From contig CABXFE010000002.1 of the NCBI GenBank assembly GCA_902511425.1, forward strand, positions 1,943 through 65,942: a DNA stretch of 64,000 nucleotides, given 5' to 3'. Shown here piece by piece: positions 6,875 to 43,812 of this stretch (positions are counted from its first letter, which is position 1; the number at the start of each line of letters is the position of its first letter). A program made the translations under genes and the position numbers. Below the pieces are notes generated by a model. It did not search any database. It was not told the origin of the DNA and was given only the letters and a program-made list of their open reading frames with translations. The stretch comes from an uncultured SAR86 cluster bacterium. GTDB taxonomy: Bacteria; Pseudomonadota; Gammaproteobacteria; Magnimaribacterales; D2472.

Positions 6875-7426
6875 ATGTTTTACTTAATACAAGGTCTTAC
6901 AATTTTTAGAATTTTTTCAGGGCCTGTTCTTTTGGTTTTGATAAGCATTTTTAATAGCTACAGCCTCGCACTTTTTATATTTTTTTTAGCAGCAATTTCA
7001 GATTATTTTGATGGCTACTTTGCTCGAAAATTTAATTTAGAATCCGAATTTGGATCTATTATCGATCCTATTGCAGATAAAATTTTAATTATTTTTATGA
7101 TTTTGGCTATTCAAATTAATACAAATAGCATCTATTTTGGGTTATTGGGAGGCTTTATTCTTGCAAGAGAGTTTTGGGTTGCTGCTCTGCGTGATCGAAA
7201 TTCTAGACAAGGTTTAAGTAGCTTGACGACAGTTACATTTATTGCAAAACTGAAAACAACTTTTCAATTACTGGCTTTACTTCTTTACCTTCTTTATTTC
7301 AAAACAAATAATAATTTAATTTTTATGATTGCGGATCTTACATTTTTTATTGCATTCTTGATGACTATCAAAAGTGGATTGGATTACACACTAAGATCGT
7401 TTAAGGCAAGTAATAATTCAACATAG
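6875..7426 (+). CDS. pgsA: CDP-diacylglycerol--glycerol-3-phosphate 3-phosphatidyltransferase
   Basis: CDP-alcohol phosphatidyltransferase motif DYFDGYFARKFNLESEFGSIIDPIADK, multiple TM segments, and uvrC-pgsA synteny. The start is immediately after the uvrC stop. Confidence 0.9.
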   Translation: MFYLIQGLTIFRIFSGPVLLVLISIFNSYSLALFIFFLAAISDYFDGYFARKFNLESEFGSIIDPIADKILIIFMILAIQINTNSIYFGLLGGFILAREFWVAALRDRNSRQGLSSLTTVTFIAKLKTTFQLLALLLYLLYFKTNNNLIFMIADLTFFIAFLMTIKSGLDYTLRSFKASNNST

Positions 7427-8095
7427 ATCTTTAATTCTCTTACTATAATAATCGTAGCATTGTTTAAGTAGGTCAATATCTGGTTCCTCATCTACATCCA
7501 CGCCTTGAAAACGATCAATTATATATCCTGTTTTATTTTCGAGGTCTTTGCTAGAGAACCATTCTTTTTTATATATATAAAATTGACCTGTGTTGTAATA
7601 ATTATCCTCTAGATCTTGAGATCTAATTAATTCTGCTCCAGGGTGATTTGAAATTAATATATTGTCATGCAACTTGAACGTCCATTCAATTGGTGACGGA
7701 AGTTTAGCAACACTAATCATCCTCAATGATTGAGATTTTTTGAACTGATTGATTGCATTATGGATTGTATCAGGATCAATGCAAATTGAATGAGGGTATA
7801 GATGCAATATGAAATCATATTCCATGAGATGCTCACGCTGATGCCAAGAAAGTAAATCAATCACAGTAGAAAAGTCATCTGAGAAATTAGAACCCCTTTC
7901 AAGAAATTTAGCCCCATTTATCTTGTTAAAGAAGTATTCATCATCTGTAGATATGAAAATAGTATCTGCAACCTGAGACCTTTGAATATTGTTAACTACT
8001 TTTTGCAGACAAAGTTGGTTATTAATTTTTAGTCTATTTTTATGCTTAATTCTTTTGCTATTTTTTCTTGCTGGAACAAATGCTGCTACTTTCAT
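7418..8095 (-). CDS. acylneuraminate (nonulosonate) cytidylyltransferase family protein
   Basis: The N-terminus VAAFVPARKNSKRIKHKN matches the NeuA/PseF-type ARxxSKRxxxKN signature. It is the last gene of a minus-strand neuB-GT2-neuA-like operon. Its 3' end overlaps the pgsA 3' end by 9 bp. Confidence 0.75.
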   Translation of the reverse strand: MKVAAFVPARKNSKRIKHKNRLKINNQLCLQKVVNNIQRSQVADTIFISTDDEYFFNKINGAKFLERGSNFSDDFSTVIDLLSWHQREHLMEYDFILHLYPHSICIDPDTIHNAINQFKKSQSLRMISVAKLPSPIEWTFKLHDNILISNHPGAELIRSQDLEDNYYNTGQFYIYKKEWFSSKDLENKTGYIIDRFQGVDVDEEPDIDLLKQCYDYYSKRIKDLC

Positions 8096-8727
8096 TTTAA
8101 TTTTCTCATTCTTAAGATATACATTAGCAAACTCATTACCAACATAAAGTTAACCTTGATATTATTTCCAAGTCTAGAACCTACTCTTGAGTTTAGTTTA
8201 ATTTCAAGATTTAGAATACTTTCAGGCTTGATATGAGATAAAACTAATAAATCAATACCAAAATCAATTAAACTTCTTTCATTAAAGTCCTCAACGTAAC
8301 CAAGCTTTAACCCACACATAAAATCAAAAATTCCATATTTTTTTTTGAAAAAAGCGTTAACAATTTTTTCACCAAGTCTTTTTGGATTAGTTCTAAACCC
8401 GCAGCACAGCCTATATTGATCTGAAAGTTTAATAATTTTATTTACTGATGTCGCATCAATTTCATTATCACCATCAACTATCAGAAATTGAGTGTATTCG
8501 TTATCTTTTAAAAATCTTAAACCAGCTTTAAGTGTTTTAGAGTAACCCGGTGAATTAATATCAATGACATTGCAGCTGCATTGTTTGGCTATTCTTTTTG
8601 TATTGTCAACAGAATTATTATTTAAAACAAATACATTTTCAGGTGCTATACCAGCGCTAAATAATCCCTCAAGAACTTTGTGAATATTCTCTTCTTCGTT
8701 CAATGCGGGAACAAGCACTCCTAACAT
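8092..8727 (-). CDS. small family-2 glycosyltransferase-like protein
   Basis: Motifs VLVPALNEEENI and LIVDGDNE (DxD), with a C-terminal hydrophobic tail. It has 4-nt and 7-nt overlaps with its neighbours. Confidence 0.55.
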   Translation of the reverse strand: MLGVLVPALNEEENIHKVLEGLFSAGIAPENVFVLNNNSVDNTKRIAKQCSCNVIDINSPGYSKTLKAGLRFLKDNEYTQFLIVDGDNEIDATSVNKIIKLSDQYRLCCGFRTNPKRLGEKIVNAFFKKKYGIFDFMCGLKLGYVEDFNERSLIDFGIDLLVLSHIKPESILNLEIKLNSRVGSRLGNNIKVNFMLVMSLLMYILRMRKLK

Positions 8728-9782
8728 ATATCATCTTTTAGAATGCTCTCACCGGCATGCTTATCGTTATTTAAGATCTTTCCAACTACTAAATCTTTTT
8801 CAAAAGGATGAAAGCTATTTTTTGGACATGGGCGCAAGAATTCAATATTATCCTCCTCAATTTTTTGACCCTTTGTGAGGCTTCTTTTGATTGTGATAGA
8901 TCGTCTTTGCACGATAAAAGCATTTTTTTCATTTTCCTCAACTTTCTTGACTCCATCTCCTAGTGTTTCAAACACTTCATTTCCCATATCAACCATTTGC
9001 CTCCAGGTGGTTGGATTTAGTGCAAACTTATGATCAGGACCTTCTCTGTCATTATCATCTGTAAAATGTTTTTCAATAACTCTTGAGCCAATAGCAATGG
9101 AGCCCAAAACTGATCCATGCCCTAAAGTGTGATCTGATAATCCAAGAACAATATTTGGAAATTTTTCTTTATATTTGTTTAATACATTAATATTTACAAA
9201 TTTATGTTTATTTTTTTCAAGAGTATAGTTAGTGTTGCATTGCATTAAGACCAACCTATCGTTTGGAATAATACTAACAGCCCTCATCACATCATCCATA
9301 GATGCTGCTCCAGTTGCTAATATAAGTGGCTTTGATTTTGAATCCATATATTTGATTAAATCAATCCAAGTTATGTCTCCTGAACCAATCTTATAAAAGT
9401 TTACATATTCATCCACCTCATCAATAGCTTGATAATCATATGGAGAAGTTGAGAATTCTATTTCGGCCTTTTGACACTCAAGATAAATTTCTTCTGTCCA
9501 TTCCCTCTTAAAGTGATATTGATCATAAATCTCAGAAACTGATTTTTTCCAAGATGACTGATGTGTTTTCAATGATTCTAACTTTTGAAACTCAACATCA
9601 TTCACTATTTTGTCGGCTAAAAAATGTTGAAATTTTGCACAATCTGCACCTGCTTCTTTAGCATGCCATACTAAATCTTTTGCACGCGAAAGATCCCCAT
9701 CATGATTTGCAGCAATATCGGCAATGAAATAGGGAGGGTGCTCAATGCCAACTGCTTTTCTTCCAAGCTTTAAATCACTCAT
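8721..9782 (-). CDS. N-acylneuraminate/pseudaminate/legionaminate synthase family protein (NeuB paralog 1)
   Basis: FIADIAANHDGDLSRAKDLVWHAKEAGADCAKFQ is the NeuB-family N-terminal signature. Also LGLSDHTLG, and a C-terminal SAF-like segment (FLRPCPKNSFHPFEKDLVVGKIL). Confidence 0.85.
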   Translation of the reverse strand: MSDLKLGRKAVGIEHPPYFIADIAANHDGDLSRAKDLVWHAKEAGADCAKFQHFLADKIVNDVEFQKLESLKTHQSSWKKSVSEIYDQYHFKREWTEEIYLECQKAEIEFSTSPYDYQAIDEVDEYVNFYKIGSGDITWIDLIKYMDSKSKPLILATGAASMDDVMRAVSIIPNDRLVLMQCNTNYTLEKNKHKFVNINVLNKYKEKFPNIVLGLSDHTLGHGSVLGSIAIGSRVIEKHFTDDNDREGPDHKFALNPTTWRQMVDMGNEVFETLGDGVKKVEENEKNAFIVQRRSITIKRSLTKGQKIEEDNIEFLRPCPKNSFHPFEKDLVVGKILNNDKHAGESILKDDIC

Positions 9783-12027: not shown

Positions 12028-12987
12028 ATGAGTAAACCAAAGTTATTATTTTCAGCTCCATTTTCTTTTCTCAAAGATGATATTAAAAAATTTAGGGAAT
12101 TTTTTGAAATAGATTTCATTGAAATTTGGAAACGAGATGAACTTTTACAATTGCACGCTGATTATGAATTTTGGATACCAAATCCAGGACAAAATTTTGT
12201 GATTGACAATTCTATATTAGAAAAGATGACGCATTTAAAAATTATATCGACTCCTTCAACAGGAACCAATCATATAAACATTCTTGATTGCAATTCAAGT
12301 AACGTTCATGTAGTTGGCCTGCTTGATCAAAAGATAAAGCTTGAATCTATATCCGCCAGCGCAGAATTCACATTTTTAAAAGTACTTTCAAGCCTAAGAA
12401 ATATTCGATTAGCATGGTCGGAAGTTGAATTAAATCGATGGAGAGACAATGAGGATAAAATGAGAGGACATGAAATTAATGAGAGGAGTTTTGGCCTCAT
12501 TGGAATGGGTAGAATTGGGAATAAATTATGTAGATATTTAGAGGCTTTTGAAGCAAGAAAAATTTTTTTTTATGATCCATATGTCAATTGCGACAAATTA
12601 AATATTTCAGAAAAAAAAGATTTAGACTTTATATTTCAAAATTCAGATGTAGTTGTTATATGTTGCGCTTTGAACGAAGAAACAAACTCTATGATCTCTA
12701 AAAAACACCTAGATCTTTTGCCCAAAGATGCTTGTATGATTAATACATCTAGAGGAGAGATTATAAATGAGCAGGAATTAGTTGAGTTTTTAGGGGAAAG
12801 ACCTGACATAACATTTTGTGCTGATGTGATAACTGGAGAGGTAAATGATTTGCAAATGCATAACCCATTAATTCCCCTTCATTTAGAAAAAAAAATTAAT
12901 TTGACGCCTCACATTGCAGGTGCGACATATGGATCCCAAACAAAAGCAGCTGTATTTGCATTTGAGGCTTTGATTGATCATGTTTAA
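12028..12987 (+). CDS. D-isomer-specific 2-hydroxyacid dehydrogenase family protein
   Basis: NAD-binding motif FGLIGMGRIGNKLCRYL, followed by INTSRGEII and TPHIAGAT, typical of the glycerate/phosphoglycerate dehydrogenase family. Confidence 0.75.
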   Translation: MSKPKLLFSAPFSFLKDDIKKFREFFEIDFIEIWKRDELLQLHADYEFWIPNPGQNFVIDNSILEKMTHLKIISTPSTGTNHINILDCNSSNVHVVGLLDQKIKLESISASAEFTFLKVLSSLRNIRLAWSEVELNRWRDNEDKMRGHEINERSFGLIGMGRIGNKLCRYLEAFEARKIFFYDPYVNCDKLNISEKKDLDFIFQNSDVVVICCALNEETNSMISKKHLDLLPKDACMINTSRGEIINEQELVEFLGERPDITFCADVITGEVNDLQMHNPLIPLHLEKKINLTPHIAGATYGSQTKAAVFAFEALIDHV

Positions 12988-13984
12988 ATTTTTTGATGAT
13001 AGAGCAACACTTATTGCTGAAATAGGGGGCAATCATGAAGGGTCTATTAATAAAGCAAAAGATTTAATGTTTGAAGCTGCAGAAAATGGTGCAGATATTA
13101 TTAAGTTTCAATCATACTCAGGCCCAGGCTTGGTAAACAAGAGTCTTCGTCCGGATCGATTCGAGCACTTTGAAGGCTTCATGCTGTCAGACGATCAATG
13201 GATAGACTTAGCTGAGACAGCAGTCAAAAATAATATACATTTTTCTAGTTCGCTTTGGGAGGAGAAATATTTTAACTTATTAGATAAATATATTTCTCTC
13301 CATAAGGTTGGTTCAGGGGATTTAAATAATTTCTTAATGATTAAAAAGTTGATCAGCACCAAAAAACCTCTTGTTCTATCCTCAGCCATGTCTTCAAATG
13401 ACCAGCTAAAAGTAATGTATGATTTTGTTTTAGCGGAAGATCCAAATATCATAAAAGAAAATAGATTGGGAATACTTCAATGTACCGCAATGTATGACAA
13501 TCCCTCATTCCATAATGTTCATTTGTCTGTATTAAAAACATTCAAAGATCAGTTTGACTGCATGATCGGCTTTAGTAATCACGCTGTTGGAATTAACCCA
13601 TCTATTATGGCTCTAGCATTAGGAGCTCAAATTATTGAGTTTCATTATACCAGTTCTAAAGATGCAGCCTTTCGAGACCATAAGCTATCATTTAATGCAG
13701 CTGATCTTAAATATGTTGCACAATTTAACAGGGAAGTTATGGACATGCATGGGGATAGCTGCAAGAAAATTCATTATGATGAACAAGAAAACACCAAAGA
13801 ATTCCGACGAGGCATTTTTTTAAAATCAAATCTAAAAAAAGGCTCAATTATTAATCATGATAATTTAACCTTCTTAAGACCAGAGGAAGGAATCTCAATG
13901 TGGGATTTAAATAAAGTGATCGGAAAAAAGCTTAGGGTAGATGTTTCAGCCCTTGAGCCTCTTAGTTTTGAATTCTTAGATTAA
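12980..13984 (+). CDS. N-acylneuraminate/pseudaminate/legionaminate synthase family protein (NeuB paralog 2)
   Basis: Motifs LIAEIGGNHEGSINKAKDLMFEAAENGADIIKFQ and GFSNHAVG, with a C-terminal SAF-like LTFLRPEEGISMWDLNKVIGKKL. ATG 12980 overlaps the upstream gene by 8 nt. Confidence 0.85.
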   Translation: MFKFFDDRATLIAEIGGNHEGSINKAKDLMFEAAENGADIIKFQSYSGPGLVNKSLRPDRFEHFEGFMLSDDQWIDLAETAVKNNIHFSSSLWEEKYFNLLDKYISLHKVGSGDLNNFLMIKKLISTKKPLVLSSAMSSNDQLKVMYDFVLAEDPNIIKENRLGILQCTAMYDNPSFHNVHLSVLKTFKDQFDCMIGFSNHAVGINPSIMALALGAQIIEFHYTSSKDAAFRDHKLSFNAADLKYVAQFNREVMDMHGDSCKKIHYDEQENTKEFRRGIFLKSNLKKGSIINHDNLTFLRPEEGISMWDLNKVIGKKLRVDVSALEPLSFEFLD

Positions 13985-14047: not shown

Positions 14048-14121
14048 GGCTGGATGGCAGAGTGGTTATGCAGCGGCCTGCAAAGCCGTTTACGCCGGTT
14101 CGATTCCGGCTTCAGCCTCCA
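14048..14121 (+). tRNA. tRNA-Cys (anticodon GCA)
   Basis: Folded by hand. Acceptor GGCTGGA/TTCAGCC, 3-bp D stem, anticodon stem GCGGC/GCCGT with loop CTGCAAA, T arm GCCGG-TTCGATT-CCGGC, discriminator T and an encoded CCA. It closely resembles E. coli tRNA-Cys as I recall it. Confidence 0.93.
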
Positions 14122-14128
14122 AGCTTTT

Positions 14129-14938
14129 ATGAAATCTAAAAAAATGAAAGATATTACAAATGAAGAGCACAAGGATAATTCTGCCCTTTACGGAATAATA
14201 ATTGTTGCTCGATTAAGTTCAAGCAGACTGCCTCAAAAAAATATTATGCCTCTTGTTGGCAAACCAATGATTGAGCATCTCATAGATAGAGTGGGGCAAT
14301 CAAAAAAATCTCCAAAGATTATTATTGCAACAAGCGATGAAAAATCTGATGATCAATTAGAAGAGCTAGCAAATAAAAAAGGGATTCTTTGTTATAGAGG
14401 TTCTCTAAATAATGTTATGCAGCGTATCGTAAGTGCGGCACAAAAATTTAATGTAAAAAACATAATAGAGATTTTAGGCGATAATCCATTAGTGCATGGT
14501 AATTTAATAGATGATGTAATAGATGTCTTTGAGAGAGAAAGATGTGATTACGCAGCTACAGCAACAAAAGAATATGATCAAATACCTAAATCTGTAGCGA
14601 AATTTTCAGTTGGGGTTAGAGTTCAAATATACCCAACAAGAATTGGAGAAAAGTTTCACAACTTCCCTGAATATATCAACAATGAGGAGAAGCATCCGTG
14701 CTCGTTTATATTTGATAATTCTGATAAGTTTTCTGTCCATTTTTTAGAGGCTGATAACAATTGGAAATTTTTAAATAAACCTGATTTGAACTTTGCAGTT
14801 AACTATCCTAAAAACTTCAAGTTTGTTAAAAATATATTTGAGGCCCTGTATACACAAAACCCATATTTTTCTATATCTGATATGTTTAGATATCTTGAAA
14901 CTAATCAAGAGCTATATGAATTACTGGGGCCTGAATAA
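14129..14938 (+). CDS. SpsF/NeuA-type cytidylyltransferase family protein
   Basis: IIIVARLSSSRLPQKNIMPLVGKPMIEH matches the ARxxSxRLPxK signature of SpsF-like cytidylyltransferases. The track ORF start 14054 lies inside the tRNA, so I moved the start to ATG 14129 (ATG 14144 is also possible). Confidence 0.7.
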   Translation: MKSKKMKDITNEEHKDNSALYGIIIVARLSSSRLPQKNIMPLVGKPMIEHLIDRVGQSKKSPKIIIATSDEKSDDQLEELANKKGILCYRGSLNNVMQRIVSAAQKFNVKNIIEILGDNPLVHGNLIDDVIDVFERERCDYAATATKEYDQIPKSVAKFSVGVRVQIYPTRIGEKFHNFPEYINNEEKHPCSFIFDNSDKFSVHFLEADNNWKFLNKPDLNFAVNYPKNFKFVKNIFEALYTQNPYFSISDMFRYLETNQELYELLGPE

Positions 14939-14943
14939 GCTTT

Positions 14944-15897
14944 ATGTTTAGGGCTGGAATTATTGGATGCGGAGGAATTGCTGGTGGTTTTGATGTAAAT
15001 TTGCCCAGTGTAGGAGCCCTATCTCATGCTGGAGGTTATCATTTATCTCAATGCGTAGAACTTATCGCGATTTGTGATTCAGATCTAAAAGTTGCAAAAG
15101 AATTTTCAGAGAAATGGGGGGTTAAAAATCACTATTCAGATTATCAAAAAATGATTGCTGAATTGAATTTGGATATTGTTAGTATTTGTTTGCCAACGGA
15201 GCTTCATTTTTCTTGTTTTAAGCATGTTGTGAAGTCAGACGTAAAAGCAATTTTTTGTGAGAAACCTCTAGCAAAAAACCTTGAAGAAGCCTTAGAGATG
15301 GAAAAAATTTCTATAAATATCCCGGTTAGCATAAATTATTTCAGGAGATGGAATTTAAAAATTTCAGATCTAAAGGTTGATATTGATGCAAAGAAATTTG
15401 GAGATCATCTTCATACTACAGCAAGATATACTAAAGGATTGCTCGGCAATGGTAGCCATGTAATGCATTTAATAGAGTGGTTGTTTGGAGAGCCAACCAA
15501 TATTTCAGGAGTAGATGTTTGCGGAGATTCACCTTCTCATGAAATTGGCGTGAATTTTACTTATAATTATGACATTAATTCAAAGGTTGACTTTAGACAT
15601 ATTCCAACTTTAAATTATATTTTTATAGATATTGATATTCTATTTTCAGAGGCTAGGATTATTTTGTCTCAGAGAGGGCAAAGGCTTTCAATAGAAAAGA
15701 TTGTTGATGATCCAGATTACCCATCTTTTAAAATTTTAGACAATGCATGTTTCTCTGAAACTTCTTGGCGTGATTGCTCAACAAGAGCCATCACTGAGCT
15801 TGCAGATTGTATCAATACTGGAAATAAAACAAGTTGTAGCATTGAAGACTCAATTCAGATTATGAAAAGATACGATCAAATTATTTCATATATATAG
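14944..15897 (+). CDS. Gfo/Idh/MocA family oxidoreductase
   Basis: N-terminal Rossmann motif AGIIGCGGIAGG and EKPLA motif (FCEKPLAKN). Confidence 0.75.
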   Translation: MFRAGIIGCGGIAGGFDVNLPSVGALSHAGGYHLSQCVELIAICDSDLKVAKEFSEKWGVKNHYSDYQKMIAELNLDIVSICLPTELHFSCFKHVVKSDVKAIFCEKPLAKNLEEALEMEKISINIPVSINYFRRWNLKISDLKVDIDAKKFGDHLHTTARYTKGLLGNGSHVMHLIEWLFGEPTNISGVDVCGDSPSHEIGVNFTYNYDINSKVDFRHIPTLNYIFIDIDILFSEARIILSQRGQRLSIEKIVDDPDYPSFKILDNACFSETSWRDCSTRAITELADCINTGNKTSCSIEDSIQIMKRYDQIISYI

Positions 15898-15906
15898 GAA
15901 AGGTTA

Positions 15907-17289
15907 ATGATAAAAAAAACAAAATCTAAACTTGCAATTCATGGAGGATCTCCAGTTAGAAGCTCTCCTTATCCCATTCATTCAACAATGCTTGATGATG
16001 CTGAAGAGAAGCAATTGATTGAGACTATTAGAAAAGGTCATTTATCTGGATTCTCTGCAAGACCTGGAGATAGATTTCTTGGCGGAGAAAAAGTAATCGA
16101 GCTTGAAGAGCATTTTGCTAAAAAATTCAACGTCAAGTTTGCTGTAAGCACAAACTCAGCAACCTCAAGCCTTCATAGTGCAATTTCAGCAATTGGAATT
16201 AGAGAAGGTGATGAAGTAATTACCTCTCCATTTACAATGTCAGCTACAGGTAGTTCAATAGTAATGCAAAATGCTGTTCCGGTGTTCGCAGACATTGAAG
16301 ATAGAACTTTTGGTCTTGATCCAGCATCTGTAGAGAAGTTAATTTCTAAAAAGACCAAAGCAATTCTTACTGTAAATATACTGGGACATCCATCACGTTT
16401 AAAAGAATTAAAGGAGATTGCTGACAAATATAATTTATTTCTAATCGAAGATAATGCCCAATCACCTATGGCTGAAAATCATGGCAAGTTAGCAGGAACA
16501 GTAGGTGACATTGGAATATTAAGTTTAAATTATCATAAATGCATCCAAACTGGAGAAGGTGGCATCGCCTTAACAAATGATCCTAATCTAGCTGAAAGAC
16601 TTCGTTTAATAAGAAATCACGGAGAGGTAGTTGTAGGTAAAATTAATAAAGGTCACATGACCAATCAACTCGGATGGAATTACAGATTATCTGAATTGCA
16701 AGCAGCTGTTGGAATTCCTCAAATTAAAAAATTAGACTATTTAACAAAAATTAGATCAGATTTAGCGTCCATGTTAATTAAAGAACTTGAGCCTTTTAAT
16801 TTTCTAACACCTCCGGTAATTGAGCCCGAAAGCTCTCATGTATTTTATTTATTTGGAATGAGATTTCATGAACATGATGCAGGATTCAGCAGAAAAGAAT
16901 TTGTTAATGCCATGAAAGCTGAAGGTATAGCGTTAAATGAAGGATATGTTTTGCCGATGTATTTAGAGCCAATGTATCAAAATCCTCATCTTACACCTCA
17001 ATTAAATGTTGCATTGTCTTCAAATTTTTTAAAAGATGAATTACCAGAAAATTTTACAAATAATAGAAGTAAACATGATCACAAGAAATGTCCATATGAA
17101 TCACACATAAAAGAAAATTACTCTAATAAATTTTACTCTCCAGGCATATGCCCAATTGCAGAAAAAATGCATGAAAGTGAAATATGCATCACAGATATTT
17201 GCAAATACCCTAACTCCGAAAAAGAGATACTGGAATTTGTTGAGGCAGTTAAAAAAGTTTCTGATGGATTGCTCTCGTTGAATGCATAA
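15907..17289 (+). CDS. DegT/DnrJ/EryC1/StrS family PLP-dependent sugar aminotransferase
   Basis: Motifs DEVITSPFTMSAT and LIEDNAQS. The PLP-lysine region is LSLNYHKCIQTGEGG. It has an insertion of about 60 aa before the conserved C-terminal CPIAEK segment. Confidence 0.82.
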   Translation: MIKKTKSKLAIHGGSPVRSSPYPIHSTMLDDAEEKQLIETIRKGHLSGFSARPGDRFLGGEKVIELEEHFAKKFNVKFAVSTNSATSSLHSAISAIGIREGDEVITSPFTMSATGSSIVMQNAVPVFADIEDRTFGLDPASVEKLISKKTKAILTVNILGHPSRLKELKEIADKYNLFLIEDNAQSPMAENHGKLAGTVGDIGILSLNYHKCIQTGEGGIALTNDPNLAERLRLIRNHGEVVVGKINKGHMTNQLGWNYRLSELQAAVGIPQIKKLDYLTKIRSDLASMLIKELEPFNFLTPPVIEPESSHVFYLFGMRFHEHDAGFSRKEFVNAMKAEGIALNEGYVLPMYLEPMYQNPHLTPQLNVALSSNFLKDELPENFTNNRSKHDHKKCPYESHIKENYSNKFYSPGICPIAEKMHESEICITDICKYPNSEKEILEFVEAVKKVSDGLLSLNA

Positions 17290-18331
17290 CTTATCTTTAC
17301 GACCCCTAGTCTATTTTCAAGATATTGGAGGAACAAGATTTTTACTCCCCGTTATCAATTCATTGTTAAAACTTTTGAAAAAATTTGAAGCAATTTTTAT
17401 ATTCCACGAGAAATCATCAACATTCTCTCAAGCATTATCAGAGAGCTTCAACAATAATTTTGCATATACTTCAATTAAAAATTTTTCAATCAAGGAGTGG
17501 AAATCTATATTGACTGAAGAAAATATTGGTGTGGTTGTTTGTACCATGAGTTCAAAATACATTGATATGACAAACTGCAATCTAATTGCTGCATGCAATG
17601 AGCTTAATATTCAAAGTATTGGTTTCTTTGATCACTGGAAGGGTTTTGATCGTTTAAAAGACGCTGATAACAGGTTCACATATATGACATCTATAGTTGG
17701 TGTGATAGATAATTACGTAAAAGATGGACTTATCAATGAAGGAATAAGCTCTGAAAGAGTTGAGGTAGTTGGGCATCCATTGCTGGAGACAATCTCACCA
17801 AAAAATTATAATAACGATCCATGTGAGGCAATCATAATTTCTCAACCAAATATTTTGGATAAAAGTTTTAATGGCATCTTTAATTTACCATTGTTTGAAA
17901 ATGAGTCTTTCATTGATAGGCTCGCTTCAACCTTTTCATCTAAATTTAGTAATTTAAAACTTCTATATAAATCTCATCCAAAAGAAAAAAAAGCGGCCAT
18001 AGTCAAAGCGGACTTATTTAAAGAATCTTGGGATGAAATAAATAAATCAAAAAAAATATTTCTTGGCTTTGATTCAATGTTGTTGTTTGAATCTTATCTT
18101 TCTAATCATGAGGTAATAATTTTAAATTTTCCTGAATTTAAGAAATATTCAGATAAAAGTATTCCATATGATTTTGGGTATTCCGTTAAAGATTTTAATG
18201 AGTTAGAAAAACGTTTATTTGCTATTGTCAGTGGGGAGTATAATCAGGCTAATACTTTTTCATACAGAGAAGTCATTTGTAACTCTATTGATCGGTCAAA
18301 AAATTTAATTGAAAATACGCTGTTAAAATAA
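17282..18331 (+). CDS. hypothetical protein, possible GT-B-fold enzyme (candidate nonulosonate transferase or UDP-sugar 2-epimerase/hydrolase-like)
   Basis: No confident family match by eye. VEVVGHPLLE and KSHPKE (HP at 17975-17980) recall the HP motif of sialyl/Kdo transferases and epimerase_2-type proteins. 8-nt overlap with the aminotransferase gene. Confidence 0.3.
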   Translation: MHNLSLRPLVYFQDIGGTRFLLPVINSLLKLLKKFEAIFIFHEKSSTFSQALSESFNNNFAYTSIKNFSIKEWKSILTEENIGVVVCTMSSKYIDMTNCNLIAACNELNIQSIGFFDHWKGFDRLKDADNRFTYMTSIVGVIDNYVKDGLINEGISSERVEVVGHPLLETISPKNYNNDPCEAIIISQPNILDKSFNGIFNLPLFENESFIDRLASTFSSKFSNLKLLYKSHPKEKKAAIVKADLFKESWDEINKSKKIFLGFDSMLLFESYLSNHEVIILNFPEFKKYSDKSIPYDFGYSVKDFNELEKRLFAIVSGEYNQANTFSYREVICNSIDRSKNLIENTLLK

Positions 18332-18362
18332 TAGAACAGGCATATAAAAAAGGGGCAAGTTT

Positions 18363-19727
18363 TTGAAAATTTCTGTATACATGGCATCTTATAATTATGC
18401 TGACTTTATTGAAGAAGCCATCAATAGTGTTATCCATCAAACATTAGATGACTGGGAACTCATTGTTATTAATGATGGCTCGACTGATGATACTGAAGAG
18501 GTATTGAAGCAATATGAGTCAAATCAAAAGATTCGTATTATTCATCAACAAAACCAGGGTCTCAATATTACGAATAATATAGCTCTAAGGCTTGCTAGGG
18601 GTGAATATATTATGAGACTAGATGCTGATGATTATTTAGATGAAAATGCATTGTCAGTTTTATCAGATAGCTTAGACCGAAATAAAGCATATGATTTGGT
18701 CTTTCCTGATTATTATGAAGTTGATGAAAATGGAAAAGTATTAGACTTAATTCGAAGAGATAAGCTAGATAATGATGTTGAAATTTTGGATTTGCCTGCA
18801 CATGGTGCATGCACAATGTTCAGAACAAATACATTAAAAAGATTAGGTGGATATATTGAAGATTTTCAATGTCAGGATGGTTATGAGCTTTGGCTTCGTT
18901 TTATTCAAAAATACAAGCCTAAAAATATTAACATACCATTATTTTATTATCGTCAGCACTCTAAGTCTCTGACAAAAAATAAAAAGAAAATTTTAGACAC
19001 GAGAAGAGAAATTAAAAAAAGATTTGTAAAAAAAGAACTTAATGGAAAATTACCAAAAGTTGTTGCCATTATCCCTGCCTCACGACAAACAAATTATATT
19101 AAAAATGATGCACTGATAGATATGTGTGGCAAACCACTCATTTGGTACACAATATCTGAAGCTTTAAAATGTAAATCTTTTGAAGAAATTATCATAAGTT
19201 CTGGGGATGATGACGTTTTAGAGTTTTCAAAAGATTTTAAAAATTTAACTCTTCATAAAAGATCTTTAGAAATTGACACCAATTCTAGTAGGGGTGAGTT
19301 AGGTCTCGATGCCCTTCAATCTCTTTCAAAGATAGACCAAGCAAGTATTGATTATGTTTGTTTTTTAAACGTAAATTCTCCCTTGAGAACAGTTGAGCAT
19401 ATAGATTGGGCAATTAACACGCTTATGATTTTTAAAGTAGATAATGTGATATCTGTAGATGAAGAATTAAATAATTTGTTTCTTCATGGGGAGTCTGGTC
19501 TTTCATCTGTTACTAATTCTGATTCAATAATTAAGCTAGAAAGAGATACGTTGTATCGAGAAAACGGGGCAATAACTTTGACCCATCTAGATAATTTAAC
19601 AAAAGAGGGCTCAAGAAAGAAAACTGGTCATATAACACTTTTGCCACAAGAAAGTGTTCGGATTAATAGCGATTTTGAGTTCTGGTTAGCGGCTAAGCTT
19701 TTGGAGGAAAAAGCTTCGAGCATTTAG
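18363..19727 (+). CDS. fusion protein: N-terminal GT2 glycosyltransferase plus C-terminal cytidylyltransferase-like domain
   Basis: TTG start preceded by AAGGGG. The GT2 part shows ISVYMASYNYADFIEEAINSVIHQT, INDGSTDDT and RLDADDY. The C-terminal half shows VVAIIPAS, LNVNSPLRT, RENGAI and SDFEFWLAAKLL, like NeuA/KdsB-type enzymes. Confidence 0.7.
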   Translation: MKISVYMASYNYADFIEEAINSVIHQTLDDWELIVINDGSTDDTEEVLKQYESNQKIRIIHQQNQGLNITNNIALRLARGEYIMRLDADDYLDENALSVLSDSLDRNKAYDLVFPDYYEVDENGKVLDLIRRDKLDNDVEILDLPAHGACTMFRTNTLKRLGGYIEDFQCQDGYELWLRFIQKYKPKNINIPLFYYRQHSKSLTKNKKKILDTRREIKKRFVKKELNGKLPKVVAIIPASRQTNYIKNDALIDMCGKPLIWYTISEALKCKSFEEIIISSGDDDVLEFSKDFKNLTLHKRSLEIDTNSSRGELGLDALQSLSKIDQASIDYVCFLNVNSPLRTVEHIDWAINTLMIFKVDNVISVDEELNNLFLHGESGLSSVTNSDSIIKLERDTLYRENGAITLTHLDNLTKEGSRKKTGHITLLPQESVRINSDFEFWLAAKLLEEKASSI

Positions 19728-25930: not shown

Positions 25931-26998
25931 ATGAAAATTACAGACCTTAGAAAGTACGATAGCCTATACGTACTTGCAAAAAAAATGGGTAGTGGAAATA
26001 TTCTTAGATCCTATCTACAGCTAGATGAAAATCTACCTCTTCCACTTGGTATATCGCACGGTGTAGATATGAATCATCTTCATGAAGCTCAGGATATTTC
26101 CTCAATCGAACCTTTGCATTGGTGTTATAACGAAGTTATTGCTAAAAGAGCGGATGGAATTAAACAATGTGCTCATCTTCCTCATCCTTGGATCATATTA
26201 AAAGAGCTTAATTCTAGGCAAGCACCATCAAACGAATTGTTAATTATTGGTCCCCCAGATGGAAAGACAAATAATTTAAATTTATTAAAAAGCTTAAAAA
26301 AGAAAAAAATTAACAAAGGAGATGTTTTAATTAAGCAAAGAGGAGATATAGAGATATCAAAAAATTTCTGGATCAATGAAGGGTATGGTGTTGTTACTGC
26401 CGGCAGCAGTAATGATGAATTTTACAATAGGTTGTTTTGCTTGATTTCAAAATATGAAGAAGTTGTCAGTTGCTCAATGAGTAGCGCGCTTATATTCTCA
26501 GCTGCGCTTGGAAAAAAATGCTCAGTTCTAGAGGATTATCTTATGACTACCTATGAACTATCCAGCTATGCAAATTTTATTAATTTCAAAGGATCAGTCG
26601 CTCCTAAAATACTTGATATGATCAAGAAAGGTCAGAATGCCAATCTTATAAACTTTGCTGAGAATTTATTGGGTATTAGTTATTTAGATCAACCAATGAA
26701 AATGAAGAATAAATTATTAATTAATATTGAGAAGATCAAAACGCCAATACATCATCACACCTCTAGACCACTTTTTTTAAAGAAATTTTATGAAATTATA
26801 GCTCTTAAACTAAATAAACCATCTCTTACCAAGATGAGATTCATAGATATTGTGAAAAGTATTTCAAGCCCAAGGGTTTCAATCGTTACTAAGAATGAAA
26901 TCAGCATTTATTTATTGGGCATGAATGATTCAAACTTTTCTTCCTCGACAGTCAAATATCAAGCTAATATAACAGAGCCCGGAAGAGCAATTGATTAA
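25931..26998 (+). CDS. hypothetical protein (no family recognised)
   Basis: Long ORF in operon context between the ABC exporter and GT4 genes. No TM segments or known motifs apart from an HLPHPW segment. Confidence 0.5.
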   Translation: MKITDLRKYDSLYVLAKKMGSGNILRSYLQLDENLPLPLGISHGVDMNHLHEAQDISSIEPLHWCYNEVIAKRADGIKQCAHLPHPWIILKELNSRQAPSNELLIIGPPDGKTNNLNLLKSLKKKKINKGDVLIKQRGDIEISKNFWINEGYGVVTAGSSNDEFYNRLFCLISKYEEVVSCSMSSALIFSAALGKKCSVLEDYLMTTYELSSYANFINFKGSVAPKILDMIKKGQNANLINFAENLLGISYLDQPMKMKNKLLINIEKIKTPIHHHTSRPLFLKKFYEIIALKLNKPSLTKMRFIDIVKSISSPRVSIVTKNEISIYLLGMNDSNFSSSTVKYQANITEPGRAID

Positions 26999-39145: not shown

Positions 39146-40987
39146 ATGAAATCAAAATACCTTTTCAACACTTTCTTTGCATTAAGAACTTTCATTGTTT
39201 TAAATATTTTTTTTACCACTTCTGTATTTTCTCAGGATATTTCAGAGGAGTTTCTGGATAGCTTGCCAGAAGGTCTTAGAGATCAAGTGGAGGCCCAAAC
39301 AGAAAAGAGTGAGCAAGAACAAGAGGTTGAAGGACTATTTAGATCAGATACATCTGTTTATAACAATAAAAAAATTCTTCAAAACCTTAAAGACCAGATT
39401 GAAGATCTAGGCGAACGAATCTTATTTGAAGAAAATAATATTAAAACACTTAATAGGTTTGGTGAAGAATTCTTCAGTACGATTCAATCGTCATTTATGC
39501 CCATTAATATTCCTAATTTGAGTAGTAACTACATAATTGATGTAGGTGATGAATTAAGTATCTTGTTGACTGGTATCAAAAACCAAGAGCATAAGCTTTT
39601 TGTTCAACGTGATGGATCTTTGATAATACCGGAATTTGGCAAGATATATGTTTCAGGAAACTCACTAGACGAATCTTCAGCATTAATTAGGAATTTTATT
39701 GAAACTTCCGCAGTTGGAACTAGTGCATTCGTTACCTTATCCGCAATAAGAGACGTTCAAATTATCATGCTCGGCGGAGTAAAGAGTCCAGGAATTTATA
39801 CCATAAGTGGAGGTTCAAATCCTGTTTTTGCTTTAAATGCTGCAGGAGGTATATCTGAAAAAGGCTCTTTCAGAAAAATTGATCATAGGAGAAATGGTAA
39901 AACCATTCAGTCAATTGACTTATATGATATTTTTGTTTTTGGAGATTATAATATTAAACATCAGATGAGGTCTGGTGATGTTATTTTTGTTCATCCTCCT
40001 CAAATTCAAATTCCAATCTCAGGAGGAATTTATAATCCTAATATTTATGAGATGGTTGAAGGGCAGTCAGTTAACGATTTAATTGAATATGCAGGCGGAT
40101 TTAGAGAAGGTTTCTATGGCTATAATAAGATTGCTGTTAGGAGAACTTCAATAGATCGGGCTTTAACATTAGAGGTATCAATTGATGAAATTTCTGATTT
40201 TAAGCTGCAACACCGAGATATTGTTAGCGTACCTTTTTATGAAAATCAATTTGAAAAAATTAAATCAGTTATTATCGAAGGAATGGTTAATAAACCAGGT
40301 GAATATTTTATTAATGACAGCGAAAAACTCTCTTCAGTCATAAAAAGAGCTGGTGGTTATAAAGAAAAAGCATATGTTTTTGGAGGAATGCTTTTAAGAG
40401 ATGATGCATTAGAAAAAGAGCAATTGTATGCAGAAAAAGTATATTCAGATACCATTAATTTTTTAGTCTCAAGTATAGCTAAGCCGGGCACCTCATTTGA
40501 TTCTTCAGCTGTTCAATTATTAATAGAAGAGCTTAAATCCCAAAATTTTACTGGTCGAATAATAACAGAATTCGATTTAGATCAAATTAATGAAAACAGT
40601 GCGCTAGACTTATTATTACAAGATAAAGACAGAATTATTATTCCGCAGATTCAAAAGGTCGTATATCTTTTCGGAGATTTAAATGCGCCCACAATATTAA
40701 ATTACAACTCGGATTACGGAATTAATGATTACATCAGATTGGCTGGTGGAATAAAGGACTCTGCAACTAATGATTTATTAGTAATTAACCCTGATGGAAT
40801 CTCTCAACAGATCAGTAGAAGTTTTTCTTTGTTTAATAGAAGCCAAGTAGATATATATCCTGGCTCAATTATTTATGTACCAAGAGACATTGGTCAATTA
40901 TCCGGTATTTACTATGCATCTACTGTTGCTCCTGTTCTTAGCAGCTTAGCCATATCTTTAGCATCATTAAATAGCATTAAGGATTAG
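39146..40987 (+). CDS. outer-membrane polysaccharide export (OPX) protein, long Wza/KpsD-like form
   Basis: Signal peptide without a lipobox. Poly_export-like segment YIIDVGDELSILL...VQRDGSLIIPEFGKIYVSGNSLDE. Several SLBB-like repeats (GGV/GGF...G motifs). C-terminal amphipathic/hydrophobic helix VAPVLSSLAISLASL. Confidence 0.8.
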   Translation: MKSKYLFNTFFALRTFIVLNIFFTTSVFSQDISEEFLDSLPEGLRDQVEAQTEKSEQEQEVEGLFRSDTSVYNNKKILQNLKDQIEDLGERILFEENNIKTLNRFGEEFFSTIQSSFMPINIPNLSSNYIIDVGDELSILLTGIKNQEHKLFVQRDGSLIIPEFGKIYVSGNSLDESSALIRNFIETSAVGTSAFVTLSAIRDVQIIMLGGVKSPGIYTISGGSNPVFALNAAGGISEKGSFRKIDHRRNGKTIQSIDLYDIFVFGDYNIKHQMRSGDVIFVHPPQIQIPISGGIYNPNIYEMVEGQSVNDLIEYAGGFREGFYGYNKIAVRRTSIDRALTLEVSIDEISDFKLQHRDIVSVPFYENQFEKIKSVIIEGMVNKPGEYFINDSEKLSSVIKRAGGYKEKAYVFGGMLLRDDALEKEQLYAEKVYSDTINFLVSSIAKPGTSFDSSAVQLLIEELKSQNFTGRIITEFDLDQINENSALDLLLQDKDRIIIPQIQKVVYLFGDLNAPTILNYNSDYGINDYIRLAGGIKDSATNDLLVINPDGISQQISRSFSLFNRSQVDIYPGSIIYVPRDIGQLSGIYYASTVAPVLSSLAISLASLNSIKD

Positions 40988-41018
40988 TAAACAATTCTTT
41001 TGTTTGATCTGCAATAGG

Positions 41019-43211: not shown

Positions 43212-43812
43212 ATTGCTTTTAATTCTTTTGTTACTTTCCTGCTGTAGCTATGTTAGCTATTCACAAGTTGTCCCTATGATTAAAGTTGCTACAATTGGAG
43301 TTCCAAATGAAAGTATTACTTTAAAAGATTTTCAAAATGCTGAATATTCTTTTTTAAAAGTTCGCATTGGAAGATCTGCAAACGCTAATCTAACATTAGC
43401 GACGGTTAAAAATAATATTCTTGAATGGGTCTCAGCAACTAATGAGAAAATTTATACTTATAACGGTAAGATTATCAAAGTATCAGGAATTGGGAAGAAC
43501 ATAAGCTTTATCACTTATTCTAAATTTGCAATTGAGCCCCAAACTATTGATTCCTTTGATGTTCAGCTATATAACCCTGGCGCTGTAATACAGCAAGTAT
43601 CTGATATGCGCTTTGTGGATTATAGAGAAATTTATCATCTCGATGAAAAAATAAATACACAATACTTTAAGGAATATGTTATTACCAAAGAATTTAGATG
43701 GAAGTATGTTAATCACTATTGGGTAGATGATTCTACTAATAGAGTAATCAAGACAAAGCAGTCAATTCACCCAGACTTCCCAAGTCTAGAAATAGAATAT
43801 TTCTATAAATAA
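43195..43812 (+). CDS. YjbF/GfcB-family lipoprotein
   Basis: Lipobox LLLSCC. The segments AEYSFLKVRIG...EWVSATNEKIYTYNGKIIKV and VNHYWVDDSTNRVIKTKQSI align by eye with E. coli YjbF as I recall it (WHNRYWIDSEGQIRQSEQYL). 17-nt overlap with the yjbH-like gene. Confidence 0.65.
   Translation: MIYTIRLLLILLLLSCCSYVSYSQVVPMIKVATIGVPNESITLKDFQNAEYSFLKVRIGRSANANLTLATVKNNILEWVSATNEKIYTYNGKIIKVSGIGKNISFITYSKFAIEPQTIDSFDVQLYNPGAVIQQVSDMRFVDYREIYHLDEKINTQYFKEYVITKEFRWKYVNHYWVDDSTNRVIKTKQSIHPDFPSLEIEYFYK

Follow-up and report, generated by a model that had tools for sequence, protein, structure and literature searches.

The gene described here lies in a window of 64,000 nucleotides from an uncultured SAR86 cluster bacterium (contig CABXFE010000002.1) and combines two modules of known kinds, a glycosyltransferase of family 2 (GT2) and a pseudoenzyme domain with the fold of the cytidine monophosphate (CMP)-sugar synthetases, which we call ψCT, for pseudo-cytidylyltransferase. 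The window is AT-rich (31–38% GC) and belongs to an assembly of 1.14 Mb that is 56% complete, in which the fusion is present as a single copy. Near-identical PheT and UvrC clusters place this genome with an uncultured gammaproteobacterium. The fusion is the last gene of a string, all on one strand, in which the genes are tightly packed or overlap (Table 1), among them a NeuB-type ulosonic-acid synthase and an intact cytidylyltransferase (CT), and across other genomes the fusion is genetically tied to these two partners. The fusion is real and ancient, and both of its halves are under purifying selection.

Architecture of the fusion protein

The reading frame starts with TTG behind a good Shine-Dalgarno sequence, AAGGGG, as the initial annotation of this gene had described, and the sequence and the N-termini of the homologues agree with that description: these read M-K-[VI]-[ST]-V-Y and align with the TTG-encoded residue. 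Because the homologues begin at the same position, and a start at the internal ATG (Met7) would delete the conserved first strand, the TTG start is supported. The motif strings quoted in that annotation are all present in the translation, namely INDGSTDDT (residues 36–44), RLDADDY (85–91), the Lys-rich linker (206–232) and VVAIIPAS (233–240), followed in the C-terminal half by LNVNSPLRT (335–343), RENGAI (399–404) and SDFEFWLAAKLL (436–447).

Its assignment of a GT2 domain and a CMP-sugar-synthetase-like domain was right, both by profile and by predicted structure. Pfam recognizes Glycos_transf_2 (PF00535) at residues 4–160 (E = 1e-31, 110.6 bits against a cutoff of 23.3) and, in the C-terminal half, the nucleotidyltransferase profile CTP_transf_3 (PF02348) at residues 234–360 (2.2e-9, 37.9 bits against a cutoff of 22.6), the latter match spanning only positions 1–120 of the 217 of the profile, that is, its N-terminal half. 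In NCBIfam neither half reaches an equivalog (PseF, 49.3 bits against a cutoff of 205.7; KdsB, 21.4 against 155.2), and neither half matches the known bacterial sialyl- or ulosonate transferases (GT38, GT42, GT52, GT80, Maf, KpsS/KpsC) in Pfam or NCBIfam down to E = 1. The AlphaFold2 (AF2) model, built on 31 family members, has a predicted local distance difference test score (pLDDT) of 82.7, above 90 for most of residues 1–130, and a predicted template-modelling score of 0.77. It consists of two GT-A-like domains with a long basic helix between them; by Foldseek, the N-terminal half resembles 6P61 (template-modelling score, TM, 0.90) and the C-terminal half the CMP-sugar synthetases (TM 0.77–0.83).

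The helix that joins the two domains is itself conserved. In the 31-sequence family alignment (A1), two of its positions, R214 and I217, do not vary at all, and T213, R215, K218 and F221 hardly vary; the start of the helix is also found in the free GT2 proteins of the 6P61 type. Median pairwise identity amounts to 69% in the GT2 half, 51% in the ψCT half and 44% in the linker.

Distribution and age of the fusion

Full-length homologues with both domains number more than 3000, typically at about 50% identity, and in a scan of one genome per species the fusion is carried by at least 573 species genomes. The carriers include the Candidate Phyla Radiation (CPR), Planctomycetota, Desulfobacterota, Bacteroidota, Elusimicrobia, Omnitrophota, Nitrospinota, Pelagibacteraceae, Marinimicrobia and Dehalococcoidia among the Bacteria, Methanosarcinales and Woesearchaeota among the Archaea, and a few isolates; Aquimarina celericrescens KCTC 52897 (L033), Rhodoferax saidenbachensis (L052) and Nitratidesulfovibrio sp. 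HK-II (L057) are carriers that can be cultured. Since so many homologues and genomes share the architecture, the fusion is not an artefact of assembly or of a frameshift, an explanation that we reject on these comparative grounds. The initial annotation knew of no characterization of such a protein, and our literature search likewise found no paper describing the GT2-ψCT architecture.

A divergent operon next door (7418–9782, minus strand) carries the same kinds of enzyme in unfused form: a NeuB gene (8721–9782), a small GT2 gene (8092–8727, 211 aa) and a PseF-like cytidylyltransferase gene (7418–8095) with an intact VPARKNSKRIKHKN loop. The small GT2 is only about 21–25% identical and falls outside both the 6P61 and the fused lineages and, because it belongs to neither, a GT2 beside NeuB and a cytidylyltransferase must have arisen more than once. 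An origin of the fusion by recent duplication of this trio was considered and rejected: the two halves are only about 21% identical to the corresponding genes, and the small GT2 is not of the 6P61 lineage.

The GT2 half and its free relative

In searches with phmmer, the GT2 half is closest to the Escherichia coli chondroitin polymerase K4CP (2Z86/2Z87; E = 1.7e-33, aligned end to end with the second GT-A domain) and to 6P61 (9.5e-31). TuaG and EpsE match at about 95 bits, and Foldseek also returns K4CP, heparosan synthase, SpsA, TarP, TarS and WrtF. The three GT2 motifs are retained in A1 and in a wider set of 188 full-length members (Table 1). RLDADDY aligns with LDSDD of K4CP and VDADD of 6P61, and D172 of the QDG motif corresponds, by alignment only, to the acidic residue (Glu) of H-E-D in 6P61. 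With its DxD, nucleotide-binding and candidate base motifs intact, the GT2 half would be catalytically competent and would use a nucleoside-diphosphate (NDP) sugar and a divalent metal. As it has the GT-A fold, it is no member of the NeuC, LegG or PseG families, whose fold is GT-B or epimerase_2, and it could be at most a functional analogue of these enzymes.

K4CP, the best sequence match, resembles the fusion in carrying two GT-A domains per chain. In K4CP and the Pasteurella multocida heparosan synthase, however, both domains are active UDP-sugar transferases, whereas the second domain of the fusion is derived from a nucleotidyltransferase, and the relative orientation of the domains differs: the whole model aligns along both GT-A domains of these enzymes over 440–550 columns, with a TM of only about 0.4.

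The best structural match, 6P61, is a structural-genomics entry, a Leptospira borgpetersenii ‘glycosyltransferase’ of about 220 aa that has remained an orphan structure. Apart from its TM of 0.90, it is 33–34% identical to the GT2 half over the full length (E = 6e-37), and both proteins carry the DADDY, HED/QDG and YRxH motifs, although 6P61 stands alone, without a ψCT. Its family is very large, with more than 4700 matches, and unusually well conserved, at 62–70% identity across phyla. In Leptospira idonii, another spirochaete and a deltaproteobacterium (loci L093, L094 and L095, with the GT2 gene at 8001–8670 in each), the operon order is iron-containing alcohol dehydrogenase (Fe-ADH), GT2, (DegT), NeuB and CT, and the left edge of a further locus (L001, 1–3480) has the same gene set in another order: GT2, DegT, Fe-ADH and NeuB. 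The cassette of the 6P61 type thus has Fe-ADH and DegT, whereas that of the fusion typically has NeuB-CT fusions, a short NeuB and a 2-hydroxyacid dehydrogenase; from these contexts it follows that both forms of the GT2 lineage are embedded among soluble sugar-acid enzymes. The Fe-ADH and aminotransferase pair of the 6P61 operons resembles KdnB and KdnA, the Kdo8N enzymes of Shewanella. A comparative genomics study of Leptospira gave the gene no role and noted unexplained fusions of NeuB to ‘transferase’ and phosphoglycerate-dehydrogenase domains (PMC4758666).

In the spore-crust system of Bacillus subtilis, the same three enzyme types occur in one operon, as SpsA (GT2), SpsE (NeuB-type) and SpsF (CT), and the partner cytidylyltransferase of the window is of the SpsF type (ARxxSxRLPxK), as in B. 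subtilis. SpsA is a structural match of the GT2 half (TM about 0.7), less similar to it than 6P61 or K4CP, and it has no ψCT.

Residues lost and kept in ψCT

The fold of ψCT is that of the NeuA-type synthetases, the nearest being those of Vibrio cholerae (6IFD, TM 0.83), P. parvum (the CMP-Kdn synthetase 9T4Z, TM 0.80) and Neisseria meningitidis (1EYR, TM 0.77), with 1QWJ within the same range of 0.77–0.83. We compared 182 unique C-terminal domains of the family, aligned with MAFFT, with seven NeuA-type cytidylyltransferases from the same loci, including P0123 of the window. Four positions of the P-loop are replaced (NmCSS numbering): Arg12 by S240 (Arg in all seven references and in 28.6% of the family), Lys16 by N244 (Lys in 7/7 and 1.1%), Lys21 by D249 (Lys in 7/7 and 2.2%) and Asn22 by A250 (Asn in 7/7 and 0%). 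The initial annotation had thus correctly described the loop, ASRQTNYIKND, as degraded. At the metal site, the equivalent of Asp209 is R433 (Asp, Asn or Glu in the references; Lys or Arg in 75% of the family, acidic or Asn in 3.8%) and that of Asp211 is N435 (Asp in 7/7 references; Asn in 64% of the family, Asp in 6%). None of the 182 members keeps two of Lys16, Lys21 and Asp211 together. Gln104 is also missing.

In the NeuA-type enzymes, the P-loop residues, Lys21 among them, hold the phosphates of CTP, and the K21A variant is inactive (PMC6580227). Asp209 and Asp211 form the catalytic Mg2+ site: D209A has no measurable activity and D211A lowers kcat 15,000-fold (PMC2901514, PMC6580227). Since the residues for the CTP phosphates, the ribose and the catalytic Mg2+ have been lost family-wide, ψCT cannot, to judge from these columns, act as a cytidylyltransferase of known kind. 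The earlier idea of sugar activation and transfer on one chain, with substrate channelling, is not borne out by this pattern, and a separate, intact cytidylyltransferase is encoded four genes upstream (14129–14938).

Other parts of the cleft have been kept, as ψCT has in common with the NeuA-type enzymes the Arg71-type contact, the [ST]PLR and NGA motifs and a dimerization arm, probably with its Arg or Lys. Arg71, which corresponds to the almost invariant Arg300, reads the cytosine base (PMC6580227). In the MAFFT alignment, K391 is the equivalent of Arg165, a column that holds Arg or Lys in 93% of the family; in the phmmer alignment it is offset by one residue. Arg165, from the swapped arm, salt-bridges the sugar carboxylate in the CMP-ulosonate synthetases. 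In addition, ψCT has gained His375, Glu393 and His423, and this set (with Glu or Asp at 393) co-occurs in 162 of the 182 members (89%). With the cleft Arg and Pro kept, a His-Glu-His signature gained and a median identity of 51%, the domain is not decaying. Because the cytosine-reading Arg, the SPLR cleft and the probable carboxylate-binding Arg or Lys are conserved, the most likely ligand of ψCT is CMP or the CMP-ulosonate that the neighboring NeuB and SpsF-type cytidylyltransferase produce; the alternative already offered by the initial annotation, that the domain binds rather than makes a CMP-sugar, fits the residue pattern.

Origin of ψCT

The ψCT half was searched against 1.84 billion representative proteins, and the best 149 matches were classified. 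Among these, the proteins that carry the canonical R-K-K...D signature almost all stand alone, with a length of about 230 aa (47 matches), and the ψ signature (R300, P340, H375, [RK]391, E393, H423) is found in fusions of about 455 aa and in fragments that start inside the GT2 domain or the linker. A common stand-alone form of ψCT can mostly be rejected, as most of the short matches look like truncated gene calls; only two or three in the same set look genuine (P0188, P0236 and P0198), and these are the possible exceptions to the fusion with GT2 that sets ψCT apart from the NeuA-type enzymes.

In a maximum-likelihood tree, all 38 sampled ψCT domains fall in one clade (100/99 support) nested within the active NeuA-type enzymes, while the SpsF-type enzymes form a separate clade (100/100). 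Strict monophyly of ψCT is rejected by the approximately unbiased test (p = 0.018), only because P0198, which had been labelled canonical, sits inside the clade. This protein has an intact P-loop, lacks the Asp pair and has the His-Glu-His signature, and because it is such an intermediate form it suggests an order of events in which loss of the metal site and gain of His-Glu-His came first and decay of the P-loop later.

Table 1. Features of the fusion gene and of the gene string that it closes (positions in the window; A1, 31-sequence family alignment)
Feature	Position	Strand	Basis or remark
GT2-ψCT fusion, whole coding sequence	18363..19727	+	454 aa, TTG start, TAG stop; full-length homologues begin at the same position
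Shine-Dalgarno AAGGGG	18350..18355	+	7 nt 5' of TTG (18363-18365); read from sequence
GT2 (GT-A fold) glycosyltransferase domain, residues 1-205	18363..18977	+	PF00535, 110.6 bits; Foldseek 6P61, TM 0.90
NDGSTDD nucleotide-binding motif	18471..18491	+	D38, D42 invariant in A1; [ND]DGS.D in 173/188 members
RLDADDY, DxD metal/diphosphate motif (D87, D89, D90)	18615..18635	+	Invariant in A1; D[AGS]DD in 185/188
QDGYELW with D172, candidate catalytic base	18873..18893	+	Q171, D172, G173, Y174 invariant in A1; QDG[YWH] in 169/188
Basic interdomain helix NKKKILDTRREIKKRFVKKELNGKLPK, residues 206-232	18978..19058	+	AF2 helix 207-225; conserved residues
ψCT, NeuA-type cytidylyltransferase fold without catalytic residues, residues 233-454	19059..19724	+	PF02348, Foldseek, single clade 100/99
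Degenerate P-loop PASRQTNYIKNDAL	19074..19115	+	Alignment to 1EYR and seven NeuA-type enzymes
Arg300, Arg71 equivalent	19260..19262	+	R in 99% of family, 7/7 references
NSPLR, retained [ST]PLR sugar/nucleotide cleft motif	19374..19388	+	P340 in 100% of family
His375, gained	19485..19487	+	90% of family; not in canonical enzymes
Glu393	19539..19541	+	E 91%, D 9%; adjoins K391
His423, gained	19629..19631	+	94% of family; not in canonical enzymes
R-I-N replacing Mg-binding D-x-D	19659..19667	+	References read [DNE]-I-D
D-2-hydroxyacid dehydrogenase	12028..12987	+	Overlaps NeuB start; recurrent cassette accessory
NeuB-type ulosonic-acid synthase	12974..13984	+	Pfam NeuB 2.5e-46
tRNA-Cys(GCA)	14048..14121	+	Between NeuB and cytidylyltransferase genes
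SpsF-type cytidylyltransferase, intact ARLSSSRLPQKN loop	14129..14938	+	Pfam CTP_transf_3 4.1e-29
GFO/Idh/MocA oxidoreductase	14944-15897	+	
DegT aminotransferase	15907-17289	+	
349-aa GT-B-fold protein, directly upstream of the fusion	17282..18331	+	Lineage-specific

The gene string and its surroundings

The string contains a tRNA-Cys gene, with a TATAAT box about 33 nt 5' of it and a counterpart at the same position in a syntenic relative (L005, 5829–5902). Because the long open reading frame (ORF) called at 14054–14938 reads through this tRNA gene, the cytidylyltransferase gene truly starts at 14129. Promoter and terminator scans were no more informative than those of shuffled sequence.

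The 349-aa protein encoded directly upstream of the fusion has no match in Pfam or NCBIfam and only six homologue clusters in 5.8 billion proteins. Its AF2 model (pLDDT 74.7) shows a two-Rossmann GT-B fold with conserved GHP and SHPKE motifs, and the nearest Foldseek matches are UDP-GlcNAc 2-epimerases and a lipopolysaccharide glycosyltransferase (TM about 0.55–0.63). It is a candidate for a divergent hydrolysing epimerase, a PseG analogue or a CMP-sugar transferase. With its few homologues and its presence in one of 69 fusion loci, it was rejected as part of a conserved cassette.

Downstream of the fusion, a polysaccharide locus continues to about 43.8 kb with Wzz and a true PseB, an EpsG/Wzy-like gene, an ABC exporter, GT4 genes and Wza. 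A 355-aa ORF without a Pfam match (25931–26998, plus strand) lies between the ABC exporter and two GT4 genes, and the end of the locus (39146–43812, plus strand) encodes a Wza-like protein (Poly_export/SLBB), YjbH and YjbF, an export set of the group-4-capsule type, here in a marine gammaproteobacterium with a small genome.

The cassette in other genomes

We surveyed 69 loci with a full fusion, counting partners within 10 kb. Of these loci, 61 have a NeuB-type gene and 48 an SpsF-type cytidylyltransferase; the remaining neighbors are lineage-specific. The 2-hydroxyacid dehydrogenase, the GFO oxidoreductase and DegT were rejected as obligate partners, being found in 5, 10 and 16 of the 69 loci, respectively.

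A frequent layout is [NeuB-CT fusion] [GT2-ψCT] [short NeuB, about 230 aa]; another, found in two phyla, is [fusion of CT to a D-2-hydroxyacid dehydrogenase] [short NeuB] [GT2-ψCT] (L003, L089). The dehydrogenase fusion (570–600 aa) adjoins a short NeuB of about 227 aa without a SAF domain, at 7548–9993 in L003, at 7523–9993 in L089, from 11388 in L053 and from 8226 in L079, in Planctomycetota, Pelagibacteraceae and others. A triple fusion, CT-GT2-ψCT, was found in P0040 and in a Methanosarcinales genome (L022). In about ten loci a sub-module recurs that consists of the SpsF-type cytidylyltransferase, a GFO/Idh/MocA oxidoreductase and DegT, sometimes with a GNAT acetyltransferase (in the window at 14129–17289, plus strand; in L089 at 15403–19021; also in L054, L057, L063 and L071), which suggests that a CMP-linked or related sugar is oxidized and transaminated.

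No NeuC, no PseG and none of the recognized sialyltransferase families of Pfam occur in the seven labelled neighborhoods or in the window. Among 13 carrier genomes, NeuC exceeds its cutoff in two and PseG in none, with sub-threshold PseG-like matches in three, and neither the NeuC/LegG nor the PseG family was detected in the 56% of the window's genome that the assembly represents.

Discussion

We have described a fusion protein in which a GT2 domain with intact motifs is joined to a synthetase-like domain that has lost the residues for synthesis and kept those of the ligand cleft. The interpretation that we favour, to which we give an even chance of being correct, is that of a soluble two-module enzyme of an uncharacterized ulosonic-acid cassette, in which ψCT reads a CMP-sugar, and not that of an enzyme that both activates and transfers. 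The substrate of the GT2 half would be a small, invariant compound of the pathway and not a variable glycan, and the reaction could be of two kinds. The GT2 half may cleave a sugar nucleotide, releasing the aldose needed by NeuB, and so provide the missing step of the NeuC, LegG or PseG kind, with ψCT as a sensor of the end product, a possibility that we put forward tentatively; or, what we consider somewhat less likely, it may add a sugar to the ulosonate held by ψCT. In either case, ψCT would serve as a sensor or as a substrate holder and make the GT2 step depend on how much of the CMP-activated end product there is, or on whether it is present.

Known pathways offer an analogy for a sensor. 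GNE is inhibited by CMP-Neu5Ac. In the case of PseB, inhibition by CMP-pseudaminic acid comes from work cited in PMC4758666. In both enzymes, the first committed step that consumes a nucleotide sugar senses the CMP-activated end product. There is no homology to the fusion, and the CMP-sugar binds there at a catalytic or allosteric site of the same fold, whereas in the fusion it would be read by a separate pseudo-synthetase domain.

Several observations weigh against a two-module enzyme of this kind. We know of no dedicated sugar-nucleotide hydrolase with the GT-A fold. The epimerase-like GT-B protein encoded upstream could itself release the sugar, which weakens a hydrolase role of the GT2 half at this locus, and the substrate of NeuB may be a sugar phosphate, which could need no hydrolase. 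In Leptospira idonii, a PseG-like gene that scores below threshold lies about 12 kb away from the cassette, and NeuC is present in two carrier genomes. The case for ligand binding by ψCT is made from conserved columns, and the alignment of the dimerization arm is shifted by one position between phmmer and MAFFT. Finally, the best sequence matches of the GT2 half (K4CP, TuaG, EpsE) are genuine glycan-building transferases, and the fusion lies in a polysaccharide locus (Wzz, Wzy-like, ABC exporter, Wza), where an ordinary transferase is also expected.

The last two points lead to the best of the alternatives, which we regard as somewhat unlikely: the GT2 half would add a common sugar, donated by a UDP-sugar, to the growing lipid-linked polysaccharide beside the ulosonate, and ψCT would dock the CMP-ulosonate or recognize an acceptor that ends in ulosonate, coordinating the two additions. 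The closest relatives of the GT2 half are indeed real transferases (K4CP at 1.7e-33; TuaG and EpsE at about 95 bits), the surrounding locus has Wzz, EpsG/Wzy-like, ABC exporter, GT4 and Wza genes, Wzy, Wzx or ABC genes lie near the fusion in many other loci as well, and the conserved basic helix at 206–232 could touch the membrane. Glycan-specific transferases, however, are usually far less conserved than the GT2 half, with its median identity of 69% and 55–64% between phyla, although glycan structures vary by lineage. The repeated fusion to soluble biosynthetic enzymes (CT-GT2-ψCT) also argues against this alternative, as does the place of the free 6P61-type protein, which sits between Fe-ADH and DegT/NeuB and not among transferases. 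In the case of SpsA, the nearest studied GT2 in a NeuB/CT operon, the enzyme is dispensable for the attachment of legionaminic acid: its deletion leaves the display of this sugar intact (PMC7439481).

ψCT might also be purely structural, binding no ligand and serving to dimerize the GT2 domain or to pair it with the active cytidylyltransferase or NeuB through the swapped arm of the NeuA type. In favour of this, enzymes of the NeuA type form obligate domain-swapped dimers (PMC6580227) and ψCT still has the arm region; the partner cytidylyltransferase and NeuB, moreover, are nearly always adjacent or fused. We nevertheless consider this improbable, as the best conserved polar residues lie in the cleft (99% and 93%, with P340 at 100%) and a gained His-Glu-His set is conserved as well, which is unlike a mere interface; nor is a heterodimer of the NeuA style obvious, as the active partner is of the SpsF type, a separate clade (100/100).

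Another view, for which we see little chance, is that ψCT has been re-invented as a metal-independent CMP-ulosonate glycosyltransferase acting through His375, Glu393, His423 and the basic residue at 433, so that the fusion would combine two transferases in the manner of K4CP or the meningococcal W/Y capsule polymerases. The gain of His-Glu-His, the basic residue in place of Asp209 and the contacts to cytidine and, probably, to the carboxylate that have been retained would suit such an activity, no recognized sialyl- or ulosonate-transferase family was found in the examined cassettes or the window, and the Foldseek alignment of the whole model extends over the two GT-A domains of K4CP and of heparosan synthase (TM about 0.4). 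The attack on phosphorus in a synthetase and the cleavage at C2 are, however, different reactions, with no known precedent for such a change, and the ribose contact of Asn22 is lost; the real transferase could be the GT-B protein at 17282 or the product of the ORF at 25931, and other loci hold unannotated genes too. Were it correct, a nucleotidyltransferase would have given rise to a new family of transferases, with the fusion as its first member.

A truly bifunctional enzyme, in which the C-terminal half would have kept the synthesis of a CMP-sugar through a variant mechanism and pass the product to the GT2 half, is hardly credible even with the CMP-sugar synthetase fold and a CTP_transf_3 match above cutoff, given that the residues essential for synthesis are replaced family-wide, that the PseF score is 49 bits against a cutoff of 205.7, that this gene string, like 48/69 loci, has a separate gene for an intact cytidylyltransferase, and that a GT2 of the DxD type is expected to use NDP-sugars, not CMP-sugars.

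What is new in this work is, for ψCT, the origin in a single clade, in which P0198 is an intermediate, and the gain of His-Glu-His; for the free 6P61 protein, its operon context; and, further, the survey of carrier genomes for NeuC and PseG, the local GT-B candidate and the tRNA-Cys gene inside the gene string. With thousands of sequence clusters the family is very large, and the species that carry it, at least 573, range from CPR to SAR11, Bacteroidota, Planctomycetota and Archaea. If the GT2 half were the missing releasing step, or ψCT a sensor, this would explain how many organisms manage NeuB-type pathways in the absence of NeuC, LegG or PseG, and ψCT would also be a clear case of a pseudoenzyme taken over for reading a ligand. 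Should the GT2 half turn out to be an ordinary transferase, the family would still point to a sugar-acid pathway that has gone unstudied; in both cases the orphan structure 6P61 gains a functional context. Sialic-acid-like sugars on microbial surfaces influence how phages attach, how cells are grazed and how immune systems recognize them, as well as the chemistry of marine organic matter.

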